From NCBI GenBank assembly GCA_015064735.1, contig SVRP01000009.1, forward strand, positions 8,474 through 72,473: a stretch of DNA of 64,000 nucleotides, in the 5' to 3' direction. Position numbers and translations under genes: made by a program. This document shows, piece by piece, positions 59,311-62,061 of this stretch. The stretch is from Oscillospiraceae bacterium (GTDB lineage Bacteria; Bacillota; Clostridia; Oscillospirales; CAG-272). Each line of letters opens with the position of its first letter. Positions within the stretch are counted from its first letter, which is position 1. The notes under the pieces were generated by a model. It ran no database searches. It worked only from the letters and a program-made list of their open reading frames with translations, and was not told the origin of the DNA.

Positions 59311-60476
59311 TGATAGATTACAGTAAAGTTCTTTCCCAAACGGTGGTCAATACACCTAAATCGGGAATACGTAAATTTTTTGATCTTATGAGCACTATGG
59401 ACGACGTAGTCGGTCTTACCGTTGGCGAGCCCGACTTTCAGACGCCTTGGCACATAAGAGAGGCAGGTATTGAAAGCCTTGAGCGAGGTAAGACCTACTA
59501 CACCGCAAATGCAGGTCTTATGCAACTCAGAAGCGAAATTTCAAGCTATATGAACCGCCGCTTCTCGGTCTCCTACAAGCCCGAAAGCGAGGTTATAGTT
59601 ACCGTAGGCGGAAGCGAGGCAATCGATATTGCCTTCCGCTCAATGATAGAATCGGGAGACGAGGTTATCGTTCCCACACCTTCCTTCGTTTGCTACGCGC
59701 CTCTCGTAAAAATGGCGGGTGGAGTTCCCGTTATTCTCGAAACCAAGTTTGAGGACAAATTCAAAATAGATCCCGAAGCACTTAAGGCGGCTATTACTCC
59801 TAAGACCAAGCTTCTGGTTCTTGCATATCCCAACAACCCCACGGGCGCAATTATGACCCGTGAGGACCTTTTGGAAATTGCAGAGGTTATTCGCGACACG
59901 AATATTGTCGTTCTTTCTGACGAAATATATGCTGAGATGACATATTCGGGTAACCACTGCTCTATTGCTTCTATTGATGGCATGTGGGAGCGTACCGTTA
60001 TTTCCAGCGGATTTTCAAAGGCTTTCGCGATGACGGGTTGGCGTCTCGGATACATCTGCGCACCTGCGCCCCTTTGCGAGCAGATGCTTAAGATCCACCA
60101 ATACGGAATAATGTCATCTCCCACCACTGCTCAGTTTGCCGCTATTGAAGCGCTGAAAAACGGCGAGGACGATATAAAAATGATGGTTGACGAGTACAAC
60201 CGTCGCCGCCGTTATATATTCAACGGTCTTAAGAGCATCGGAATTGAATCCTTCGAGCCCGAAGGCGCATTCTATATCTTCCCCAAGATCGGCGACTTCG
60301 GTCTTTCGGGCGAGGAATTCTGCAATAAGCTTCTTTACGAATATAAGTGCGCTATCGTTCCCGGTAACGCGTTCGGCAGCAGCGGCGAGGGATTTGCGAG
60401 AATTTCCTACGCTTACTCCATAAAGCACATAACTCAGGCACTTGAGAGAATTGAAGCCTTTGTTAAGACGCTTTAA
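59310..60476 (+). CDS. class I/II aminotransferase (YugH/AlaT-like)
   Basis: SGIRKFFD, GEPDF.TP, YPNNPTG, DEIY, GFSKAFAMTGWRLG. Confidence 0.92.
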   Translation: MIDYSKVLSQTVVNTPKSGIRKFFDLMSTMDDVVGLTVGEPDFQTPWHIREAGIESLERGKTYYTANAGLMQLRSEISSYMNRRFSVSYKPESEVIVTVGGSEAIDIAFRSMIESGDEVIVPTPSFVCYAPLVKMAGGVPVILETKFEDKFKIDPEALKAAITPKTKLLVLAYPNNPTGAIMTREDLLEIAEVIRDTNIVVLSDEIYAEMTYSGNHCSIASIDGMWERTVISSGFSKAFAMTGWRLGYICAPAPLCEQMLKIHQYGIMSSPTTAQFAAIEALKNGEDDIKMMVDEYNRRRRYIFNGLKSIGIESFEPEGAFYIFPKIGDFGLSGEEFCNKLLYEYKCAIVPGNAFGSSGEGFARISYAYSIKHITQALERIEAFVKTL

Positions 60477-60522
60477 TAAAAAATGCTTAGAGATTATAGC
60501 TGTTCTCTAAAGGACAGTTATT

Positions 60523-60564
60523 CAAAAACACGGCATATCTCGAGAGAGGTATGCCGTGTTTTTG
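60523..60564 (+). terminator. intrinsic terminator
   Basis: caaaaacacggcata...tatgccgtgtttttg. Confidence 0.8.
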
Positions 60565-60703
60565 TATTTGCGGACACAAATGCAGCGCTTCTTATGCTTT
60601 AATTAAAGACTGCAAAACGAGTGACAAAAGTAACGCAAAGGCACTTATGGCAAGTAATTTCCATAAGTGCTTTTTGCTACCTTCCGAGCGGTGCGTCACC
60701 CCT

Positions 60704-60894
60704 CGTGTCATCCTGAGCGGAGGAAGGCGCGTGCGCCGCCCGCAGTCGAACCCGTAGGGCGATGCGTAGCATCGGGATCTACGAGGGAAAAGGATGATAT
60801 TCGCGCCCGAGATCCTGCTCGGCTTTGCCTCGCACTGCTCCGCAGTTCGACTTCGCCAACCGCATTGCGGTTTTGCTACGCTCAGGATGACACG
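60704..60894. mobile_element. palindromic MITE/REP-like element (191 bp)
   Basis: Perfect 16-bp terminal inverted repeat CGTGTCATCCTGAGCG / CGCTCAGGATGACACG, nested inner pairings, GC-rich in AT-rich spacer. Confidence 0.7.
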
Positions 60895-61018
60895 GGCGGA
60901 TTTCGCTTCACAAGAAAATATGTCTTTATTTAAGGCAGCGCTTGTCAGGAAAAATGACAATATAATTCTTACTCTTCCGTAAGGTGCGTTTTACGTTTAA
61001 AAAATTCTTTCGAGTTGC

Positions 61019-61047
61019 TTGATTTTTCTAAAAGTATGTGATATAAT
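61019..61047 (+). promoter_or_regulatory. sigmaA promoter driving structured RNA
   Basis: TTGATT-17nt-(TG)-TATAAT. Confidence 0.7.
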
Positions 61048-61053
61048 AAGTAT

Positions 61054-61262
61054 GCCAAACCAACTGAATATTTTAGCAAAGACTATTTTTATCTTTAGGG
61101 GATAGTTATACCCTTTTGTTGTTACGTCAATAATGAATTTGTTAAAAACGCAAATTCCTACTGACGTGGCATAATTAGGGATAGTTTTTGCTTCTCAGTT
61201 GGTTTGGCGACTATCGGAGTTTGCGTTTTTGGTGCGGTTTACTTCGGTAGCCGCACTTTTTT
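61054..61262 (+). ncRNA. candidate structured ncRNA or leader RNA (family unassigned)
   Basis: 14-bp closing stem 61054-67/61195-208, further nested stems, followed by cTTCGg-loop terminator and T6. Confidence 0.6.
61232..61262 (+). terminator. intrinsic terminator or attenuator
   Basis: gtgcggtttac-ttcg-gtagccgcac-tttttt. Confidence 0.75.
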
Positions 61263-61282
61263 ATATACTGATGGGAGGATAT

Positions 61283-61516
61283 ATGAGCAAAAATATTCCC
61301 AAAAATGTTATCGATATTACCGGCATAGAACTTATGCCCGGAGAACCTCTCGTTTGTCTTGGAAATGGGGAGCAAGGCTTTGAGTGTTGTTGCGACGAAT
61401 GTGCCTACTATTTGCTTTGTTATCCTGAATTTGACGCAAAAAACAATCAAGGAAATATTGCCGAGAATAATGTTTATATTTCTCAATCGCATAAAAAGGA
61501 CGAGGAATTATTATAA
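61283..61516 (+). CDS. small Cys-rich hypothetical protein (77 aa)
   Basis: GGGAGG RBS; C-LGNG....ECCCDEC.Y...C motif. Confidence 0.6.
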   Translation: MSKNIPKNVIDITGIELMPGEPLVCLGNGEQGFECCCDECAYYLLCYPEFDAKNNQGNIAENNVYISQSHKKDEELL

Positions 61517-61597
61517 TTCCTCGTCCTTTCCTGTCGGGATGTAACGTATTCAAAAACCGTTCTTAAGAGTACTTCGGATTGTCTCTGAGCTTTTTTA

Positions 61598-61996
61598 TTA
61601 GTCCTCGTCGTCATCATCTTCTTCGGACAAATTCGCTTCTGCGGCTATTTCGTCAAGTAGTTCCTCTTCCTCGGATGCTCTGATTGCCTTTTCATTGGCA
61701 ATTCTTTCGGCACGGGCCTGCTTCGCTTCCTCAATAGCGGATGCAACACTTTTAATCTTTTCACGGACTGTATCTATATTGTCAACCACAGGAGCTATTT
61801 TTTCAGCCTGAGAAATTCCCGTCTTCAGCTGTCTGTAAGTAAGCTTTCCAAGGGTCTCGTATTCCTTGTTTCTTTTGTTTTCAAGAGCTCTGAGTTTAAT
61901 ATGGAGCGAGGTAATATCAGCGACCTCTCCGGTTCCCTTTATAGCCGATTTTGCCATTCTCTTAGCAGAGGATTTTATTTTTTCCCAATTAGCCAT
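61598..61996 (-). CDS. hypothetical coiled-coil protein with acidic tail
   Basis: Helical Lys/Glu/Ala-rich sequence; AAAGGAG RBS before ATG 61996 (alternative TTG 62014 also has an RBS). Confidence 0.7.
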   Translation of the reverse strand: MANWEKIKSSAKRMAKSAIKGTGEVADITSLHIKLRALENKRNKEYETLGKLTYRQLKTGISQAEKIAPVVDNIDTVREKIKSVASAIEEAKQARAERIANEKAIRASEEEELLDEIAAEANLSEEDDDDED

Positions 61997-62061
61997 AATC
62001 TTCTCCTTTAGCAATATTATCTCCTTTATTATACACTATTTATCCTCAATTGTAAATAGCA

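Follow-up and report, generated by a model that had tools for sequence, protein, structure and literature searches.

The stretch of DNA considered here (64,000 nt of contig SVRP01000009.1 from the Oscillospiraceae bacterium assembly GCA_015064735.1; hereafter the window) carries, directly ahead of an open reading frame (ORF) for a cysteine-rich protein of 77 amino acids (aa), a candidate leader RNA of 209 nt that occupies positions 61054-61262 of the plus strand (Table 1). RNAfold gives this RNA a free energy of -79.4 kcal/mol and a z score of -8.20, a value equalled by 0 of 200 shuffled sequences; the opposite (minus) strand folds at -62.9 kcal/mol (z -7.39). From its 5' end the fold comprises a 155-nt rod of four helices (P1-P2-P3-P4), an unpaired 22-nt segment that we refer to as block D, a hairpin with a UUCG loop, and a run of six U residues.

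The promoter consists of a -35 element TTGATT (61019-24), a 17-nt spacer, the TG of an extended -10 (61039-40) and the -10 element TATAAT (61042-47). Six nucleotides past the latter lies the start, G61054, which is also the first base of a 14-bp helix: the arms of P1 (61054-67/61195-208; 14 nt) are 100% complementary in a repeat search, and those of P2 (61075-86/61181-92; 12 nt) are 92% complementary. The terminator hairpin folds at -14.2 kcal/mol and is followed by U6; its stem is interrupted, and a scan for terminator-like sequences did not list the hairpin at 61231-61257. A preliminary description of this stretch had proposed an extended -10 promoter with a start near 61054, the individual stems of the rod and a UUCG-loop terminator, and all of these were recovered here, by promoter scan, by repeat search together with RNAfold, and by RNAfold, respectively.

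Table 1. Features of the leader RNA and of the gene behind it, in window coordinates.
Feature	Position	Strand	Remarks
Sigma-A type promoter	61019-61047	+	Promoter scan; positions conserved in 120 family copies
P1 5' strand, GCCAAACCAACUGA	61054-61067	+	Pairs with 61195-61208; begins at the first transcribed base
AAUA, 5' side of the P1-P2 internal loop	61067-61070	+	Nearly invariant
P2 5' strand	61075-61086	+	Pairs with 61181-61192; sequence drifts, pairing retained
Block B, GGGGAUAGUUAUACCCUUUU	61098-61117	+	Large 5'-side bulge between P2 and P3; long form only
P3 5' strand	61120-61129	+	Pairs with 61162-61171
Apical hairpin P4 (GAAUUUG/CAAAUUC) with A-rich loop	61135-61158	+	Fold; 96.2% of pairs kept in the family
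Block C, AAAAACGCAAAUUCC	61144-61158	+	P4 loop plus 3' arm
P3 3' strand	61162-61171	+	Fold, family alignment
P2 3' strand	61181-61192	+	Fold, family alignment, repeat search
P1 3' strand	61195-61208	+	61200-61203 (UGGU) can pair instead with 61210-61213 (ACUA), the anti-P1 hairpin
Block D, relay segment, GACUAUCGGAGUUUGCGUUUUU	61209-61230	+	Partners: block C for the 3' half; terminator apex or P1 3' strand for the 5' half
Intrinsic terminator with UUCG loop	61231-61262	+	Hairpin 61231-61257, U tract 61257-61262
Terminator apex, ACUUCGGUAG	61241-61250	+	Antiterminator partner of 61211-61220
Cysteine-rich 77-aa ORF	61283-61516	+	Ribosome-binding site GGGAGG at 61273-78; U tract and ATG are 20 nt apart

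Members of the family and the pattern of their conservation

BLAST of the element against its own genome led to three further places that carry block D, and these share the whole layout, i.e., promoter, GCCAAAC start, rod, block D and terminator. With a covariance model made from 58 copies (R2) the same genome yields 12 matches at E<=0.01, five of a long form (200-218 nt, 138-210 bits) and seven of a short form (153-171 nt, 30.5-81 bits) without block B, a segment missing generally from the short-form copies of 150-170 nt. BLAST matches were present in 35 of 36 genomes of the same genus, where full-length identity runs from 96% down to approximately 68% and that of block D alone from 85 to 98%. 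In an even sample at the class level, covariance-model matches (E<=1e-4) occurred in 35 of 151 genomes and 26 of 108 genera, with up to 13 matches per genome, and these counts are floors because just 15 candidates per genome were scored. The exact 27-nt block D pattern is found in at least 120 stretches of a collection of species-representative genomes; among the matches listed, all come from metagenome-assembled genomes of gut Clostridia, with names that include Oscillospiraceae, Acutalibacteraceae, Faecousia, Fimenecus, Christensenellaceae, 'Eubacterium sp. CAG:180' and similar. On viral contigs there were 3 exact block D matches, in phage records 1 partial one, and in 72,556 plasmids none to the element, which is not borne by mobile elements.

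Selection on the structure was assessed in an alignment of 107 model-aligned matches (A3), which is fitted to the model; four of its matches are weak and lie on the reverse strand, and two of its copies are truncated. The rod holds standard pairs in 94.9% of 5192 cells as compared to 71.7% in column shuffles, and pairing falls to 33-44% when the partner is slid by 1-3 columns. Changes on both sides are seen in 47 of 53 pairs, and on each of the five measures 0 of 500 shuffles come up to the alignment. P1 covaries at positions 8 and 10-14 of the family alignment and P3 shows both-side changes across the family in all of its pairs (10/10), P2 and P3 being essentially without conserved sequence. 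Nearly invariant, on the other hand, are the base of P1 (GCCAAAC/GUUUGGC), the AAUA of the P1-P2 loop (A3 columns 27-29: A in 99, U in 95 and A in 100 of approximately 101-104 copies), block B (also written GGGAUAnnUAUACCCUUUUU and conserved in A3 columns 136-195), the block C hairpin, block D, and the base and apex of the terminator, the pairs of which are 99% kept in the family. A mutual-information scan over all column pairs returned no covarying partner for block B. As judged from sequence alone, block B and the AAUA loop gave no convincing match to a K-turn, a loop E or a tetraloop-receptor, and no convincing match to a leader peptide or to anti-Shine-Dalgarno pairing was seen either.

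Many of the family's pairs are of the G-U and U-G types, and at one and the same locus the plus strand reaches 248 bits with the covariance model and the minus strand 27 bits. This strand asymmetry, together with the G-U pairs, leads us to conclude that selection acts on the plus-strand RNA, as had already been suggested from the G-U pairs of the present copy. It also bears on the question of whether the element might operate at the DNA level, for instance as a palindrome resembling a miniature inverted-repeat transposable element (MITE), as an invertible switch, or as a recombination site of the integron attC type. The consensus of attC core sites is RYYYAAC and GTTRRRY, and the ends GCCAAAC...GTTTGGC of the element resemble an inverse-core and a core site; moreover, the element is multicopy with 14-nt perfect terminal inverted repeats, its reverse strand folds well too (z -7.4), and the downstream genes are small, heterogeneous and cassette-like. 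Against this, the internal stems differ fully among copies and yet pair, their G-U and U-G pairs would be A-C mismatches on the other strand, promoter and terminator lie within the conserved unit, and the copies are mostly dispersed rather than gathered in cassette arrays. With the model scores of the two strands and the plasmid, viral and phage counts given above, we regard a DNA-level element as very improbable. An attC site in particular, which would go with promoterless cassettes in arrays and with structure selected on single-stranded DNA, was rejected, given that GCCAAAC and GTTTGGC each miss the consensus at one position, that each unit has its own promoter, and that the copies are dispersed, in a comparison that did not extend to a search for integrases nearby. 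Two DNA runs (X1 and X7) showed only skips and no strand-change joints, and hence no inversion, a result that is no proof either way because contigs drop rare variants.

Two clustered arrangements are worth recording in their own right. On the minus strand of contig C27 (8382-10139; locus L195:1883-3640) four short-form units stand within 1.8 kb as a duplicated pair, in the order unit, 483 nt, unit, 143 nt, unit, 483 nt, unit, gene; no convincing gene is present in either spacer of 483 nt, and the two are near-identical to each other. In a relative (locus L178) a drum RNA with its own terminator (RF02958, 76.3 bits; 705-822) lies approximately 200 nt upstream of a remnant and three complete tandem leader units (930-1700), each of which has its own promoter and all of which stand ahead of one gene. 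A search for drum in the window's genome gave no match, and its control was equally silent, so this search is uninformative.

Block D and its three partners

Block D is complementary to three other parts of the RNA. The first of these is block C: GGAGUUUGCGUUUUU of block D can pair with AAAAAYGCAAAUUCC, which comprises the P4 loop and 3' arm (61144-58/61216-30; 15 nt, 93% complementary in the repeat search). This 15-nt pairing had been noted in the preliminary description and it survives in the family, in that it covaries and is kept in diverged subfamilies. In A5, an alignment of BLAST-derived and model-derived loci only that avoids the ascertainment bias in block D taken up below, the D:C pairing plus the anti-P1 hairpin is paired in 98.2% of 1197 cells, with double changes in 10 of 19 pairs and slid controls at 34-66%. 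In A3, a change from U to C in block D is accompanied by a change from A to G in block C in 7 of 8 cases.

The second partner is the 3' strand of P1, in which UNGU can pair with ACNA of block D to give the anti-P1 hairpin. Its variable pair (A3 columns 443:454) is UA in 45 copies, AU in 35 and GU in 24, with non-pairs in 0 of 104, and it is paired in 71 of 72 copies of A5. When the anti-P1 hairpin is imposed on the fold, the freed 5' GCCAAAC pairs with GUUUGCG of block D. Unless the 5' strand of P1 is removed or bound, this hairpin cannot come into play.

The third partner, which had escaped the preliminary description, is the apex of the terminator. Here CNAUCGGAGU of block D (61211-61220) pairs with (A/G)CUUCGGUNG (61241-61250) to form what would be an antiterminator, paired in 89.5% of 702 cells (about 96% for the inner six pairs), with double changes in 8 of 10 pairs and slid controls at 32-47%. 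Its variable pair (columns 454:508) is UA in 37 copies, AU in 36 and UG in 11 versus 13 non-pairs. The conserved CUUCGGUAG in the terminator is explained by the antiterminator, which pairs there, and RNA position 8, its P1 partner, the block D position and the terminator position thus make up one linked chain. An additional pairing of GACTATC with GATAGTT, put forward earlier for this copy, is indeed available here as complementarity, yet the family does not conserve it (pairing in 473 of 699 cells; C:N pair in 25 of 99), and the GACUAUC segment covaries instead with the P1 3' strand and the terminator apex.

The same relations recur where block D itself has changed. Thirteen diverged or short copies in A5 have differing D sequences (e.g., GGAGCUACAUGUUUUU and GAGGGAACACUUUUU), and in 13/13 block D is complementary both to the rod interior (-14.6 to -20.2 kcal/mol, with no more than 6 of 200 shuffled D sequences as good) and to the terminator (-14.0 to -24.5 kcal/mol). 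For the terminator, at most 1 of 200 shuffles is as good in 12 of the 13 copies, and 31 of 200 are in the remaining one.

The competing states lie close together in energy. The minimum-energy fold of the tail alone (61209-61262) has the antiterminator and reaches -15.0 kcal/mol, versus -14.2 kcal/mol for the terminator, and for the whole RNA the rod with the terminator comes to -79.4 kcal/mol and the rod with the antiterminator to -79.2 kcal/mol. The equilibrium probabilities, which ignore pseudoknots, are 0.24 for the antiterminator and 0.76 for the terminator. The D:C duplex yields -18.6 kcal/mol, set against 8.6 kcal/mol for the opening of P4 and block C, so that the D:C-captured state is similar in energy to the others once an estimated pseudoknot penalty is allowed for. 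Three near-isoenergetic and mutually exclusive states are what a switch would be expected to have.

Proposed transcription attenuation and its alternatives

The position of the element relative to genes speaks to its function. In 120 copies the promoter stands at a fixed distance from the first G, and its conserved bases include T (98%) and T (82%) of the -35 element, the TG (81% and 84%), the T at -1 (89%) and the six positions of the -10 element (83/88/62/88/56/88%). Among the 115 copies with enough downstream sequence, 79 are followed by a co-oriented ORF of at least 60 aa that is preceded by a Shine-Dalgarno (SD) sequence and starts 5-60 nt past the U tract, as compared to 138 of 2360 (5.8%) random positions of the same loci; with looser criteria, an ORF lies within 260 nt in 116 of 121 copies. 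An ORF that begins 5-60 nt past the U tract leaves no room for a separate promoter of the downstream gene. The element therefore combines a promoter upstream and an intrinsic terminator, a gene directly behind, and a conserved alternative pairing that is exclusive with the terminator, and we consider it probable that it belongs to an undescribed multicopy family of 5' leaders, namely cis-acting, riboswitch-like attenuators of transcription. The structures, their covariation, the near-equal energies, the fixed promoter and the position ahead of genes are computed from the sequences; from these we infer conditional termination, the assignment of on and off states and a signal-driven shift between them.

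According to the mechanism that we propose, transcription would begin at G61054 from the strong extended -10 promoter, and the first 155 nt would fold into the rod P1-P2-P3-P4, the stems of which drift among copies and stay paired. The next 22 nt, block D, would serve as a relay with mutually exclusive partners. If block D is free and the rod intact, its 5' half (CUAUCGGAGU) would pair with the emerging apex of the terminator; this antiterminator would form before the 3' arm of the terminator is made and compete with the terminator, and polymerase would read into the gene 20 nt downstream. If block D is captured, the antiterminator would be blocked, the terminator would fold, and transcription would stop at 61257-61262. 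Capture might occur by either of two routes, namely at the apex of the rod, where the 15-bp D:C pairing would open P4 and the A-rich apical loop could serve as a toehold, or on the 3' strand of P1 in the anti-P1 hairpin when the P1 5' strand is unavailable. As to the signal, we would guess at a ligand or a protein with its site of action at the apical hairpin and, in the long form, the conserved bulge of block B. Which of the states is "on" is assigned by pairing logic rather than by measurement.

Alternatively, the units might constitute a family of stand-alone small RNAs (sRNAs) acting in trans, in which promoter, rod, a block D seed and terminator give a stable 210-nt sRNA and the downstream gene is expressed by leakage or is unrelated. 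Each unit does have its own promoter and a strong terminator, complete units occur in tandem arrays, a layout more typical of sRNA genes, and blocks C and D are far better conserved among copies and species than the stems, as expected for intermolecular pairing. An sRNA would, however, leave unexplained why 79 of 115 copies have their gene within reach of the terminator; it would have no need of a conserved pairing between block D and the terminator apex; and no complementarity to a target outside the family turned up, no target search having been made. We thus hold a purely trans-acting sRNA to be unlikely. In a mixed version, which is possible too, leaders that have been terminated would target the block C of other copies in trans; a dual role, or trans cross-talk of copies through blocks C and D, is likewise possible.

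A third explanation is that of a constitutive leader that senses nothing, in which the rod shields the 5' end of the messenger RNA or is an RNase III site and the terminator simply lowers expression by a constant proportion. In its favor, a 14-bp helix encloses the 5' end, the ligand-free equilibrium of this copy already divides between antiterminator and terminator in the proportions given above, and the downstream genes are heterogeneous, with 40 of 80 lacking a Pfam family. A simple stabilizer would nevertheless have no purpose for approximately 20 nearly invariant unpaired bases (block B and AAUA), and would hardly account for three near-isoenergetic, exclusive states that are kept through sequence change in several subfamilies, and we judge this explanation to be less likely still than an sRNA.

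A number of observations weigh against attenuation and need to be set out. The anti-P1 hairpin costs 17.5 kcal/mol to enforce in this copy, i.e., it is worse than the rod by that amount, and the perfect covariation of its variable pair is for this reason left without explanation. The outer four pairs of the antiterminator are kept in just 79.1% of cells. The D:C state is a pseudoknot, the energy of which is approximate, with a penalty that was estimated and not computed. In A3 the conservation of block D is by ascertainment because loci L038 onward were gathered by the exact block D pattern, and a phylogeny-aware test of covariation had 1 independent contrast on supported branches and hence no power (11 changes were counted on a FastTree tree without support). 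Tandem units with their own promoters and terminators (two each at loci L012, L032 and L049, three plus a remnant at L178, and four on contig C27) fit sRNA genes as well as attenuators. Among the 80 downstream genes scanned, no common pathway hints at a ligand. Finally, of 24 sequencing runs two are RNA runs, which contain 0.06 and 0.04 of the words, and their contigs, which come from relatives, cannot show transcription, starts, ends or read-through. In these metatranscriptome contigs the relatives' block D and terminator are covered: one contig (record 10 of run X23) spans 61188-61374, and two (records 21 and 22 of run X24) start at 61209 and continue past 61261.

On balance, the observation with which the preliminary description began is confirmed and its interpretation is partly supported. 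It had left the choice between an sRNA and an attenuator; the attenuator is favored by the fixed promoter, the gene linkage in 79 of 115 copies, the covarying pairing between the apex and the 3' block, and the antiterminator, and the variants of a 6S-like, an antitoxin or a guide RNA have no Rfam match to support them.

Known systems, downstream genes and biological meaning

Rfam 15 has 0 families at gathering score in the whole window and no relevant family at E<=10 in the surroundings of the element (60450-61650). A gathering-score scan of 11 other loci returned none for the element, the sole match being the drum RNA beside the L178 array, and a scan of a short-form copy at E<=1 gave no family for the element. 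The comparison with Rfam that had been suggested at the outset thus turns up no known family. In the literature we found no description of the family, although large screens could include it without a name in their supplementary lists; the block D strings have 0 matches in 7 supplementary files of Fremin and Bhatt 2021 (PMC8040213), with files 6 and 7 outside the coverage, and the family may be an unnamed candidate there.

The closest systems in logic are the T-box leaders and the transcriptional ON riboswitches. T-box leaders of Firmicutes are likewise multicopy and have a long 5' stem and a conserved 3' antiterminator segment that is set against a terminator directly ahead of a gene, and in both the 3' switching sequence is the part most conserved and the long stem is variable. 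The present family nonetheless gives no Rfam T-box match even at E<=10, its downstream genes are not those for aminoacyl-tRNA synthetases or amino acids, and, unlike in a T-box, the apex of the RNA's own rod also sequesters its relay block; neither mark of T-box membership, a model match or such genes downstream, is thus present, in a comparison that covers the Rfam model, gene content and layout and in which neither a specifier loop nor a tRNA-binding bulge was looked for. In the adenine riboswitch pbuE/ydhL, an intact 5' domain keeps a downstream segment out of the terminator, so that the folded state is the one that gives read-through. The same would hold for our leader, which differs in a P1 of 13-14 bp that is stable without ligand and in the extra three-partner relay block to the terminator.

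In the flavor of the regulon the nearest counterparts are the cyclic di-GMP (c-di-GMP) riboswitches, which in Clostridia stand in multiple copies per genome before genes for surface, adhesion and secreted proteins. The present leaders are similarly multicopy ahead of heterogeneous genes of these kinds, but neither GEMM-I nor GEMM-II of Rfam matches them and their architecture is that of a rod. As conserved RNAs of undefined function with a terminator, drum, FuFi-1, skipping-rope and DUF3800-I come closest; they are conserved structured RNAs of gut and Firmicute genomes that end in an intrinsic terminator (2017, PMC5737381), and none of their Rfam models matches the leader family, which also differs from them in its place directly ahead of a gene in most copies. 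The likeness to 6S RNA, a rod of approximately 200 nt with its own promoter and terminator, is outweighed by the lack of a 6S model match, by the multicopy occurrence ahead of genes (6S RNA would be expected as a single copy outside a 5' untranslated region) and by a one-sided bulge in place of a central open bubble.

The gene behind the present copy encodes a protein (motif GFECCCDEC) of a large unannotated family, with 875 homologous clusters (42-135 aa). Neither Pfam nor NCBIfam has a family for it, and 'hypothetical protein' is the sole wording among the source names shown. In the same genome, contig C23 has a paralogue that likewise stands behind a copy of the RNA. The central part of the cysteine-rich protein has a very high summed depth in one gut metagenome run. 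In the Pfam scan, which covered 80 downstream proteins, the families found were BspA-type LRR_5 (11/80), zinc-ribbon proteins (6/80), Listeria-Bacteroides repeats (4/80), AMP-binding enzymes (3/80), the AbrB/MazE-fold (3/80), collagen repeats (2/80) and SLOG (2/80); the 40 mentioned above gave no family. Many of the downstream proteins start, by eye, with signal- or lipoprotein-like sequences.

Other structures were noted in the vicinity. At 60680-60900 of the window, in an AT-rich intergenic region, there is a GC-rich imperfect palindrome of approximately 220 nt (-102.6 kcal/mol, z -3.3) with the closing inverted repeats GTGTCATCCTGAGCG / CGCTCAGGATGACAC, partial copies of which (75% identity) recur in this genome on contigs C23 and C9; a MITE-like insertion or a further structured RNA may account for it. 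Ordinary terminator hairpins lie at 60627-60684, after an aminotransferase operon, and at 61489-61531, between the cysteine-rich ORF and a convergent gene (61598-62014), and the two give spurious weak Rfam matches (miR-430 and Plastid-psbA-2) well below gathering score.

We rate the family as a new leader or attenuator class with an unusual relay architecture. Going further, we tentatively raise the prospect, which we think may well not hold, of a new riboswitch-like class in which the 155-nt rod senses a cellular signal via the block B bulge and the A-rich apical loop and relays it through the three-partner block to the terminator, so as to coordinate a regulon of surface, membrane and small cysteine-rich proteins across many uncultured gut Clostridia. 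Subfamilies in one genome with different C/D "codes" could form orthogonal circuits, and terminated leaders might cross-talk in trans.

For RNA biology, the family would represent an orphan switch of unusual layout, in which a single relay segment takes its input from the two ends of a long rod, with a clear chain of exclusive pairings that can be tested by mutation and with natural variants of the relay code. The carriers are mostly uncultured gut Clostridia, the gene regulation of which is little understood, and in genomes of 2 Mb a leader family that reaches 13 or more copies would add a regulatory layer of major weight. The genes that it fronts encode BspA-type leucine-rich repeat, Listeria-Bacteroides repeat and collagen-like proteins, lipoproteins, zinc-ribbon membrane proteins, AbrB-like regulators and many uncharacterized small proteins, so that the leader family would govern how these bacteria present their cell surface.

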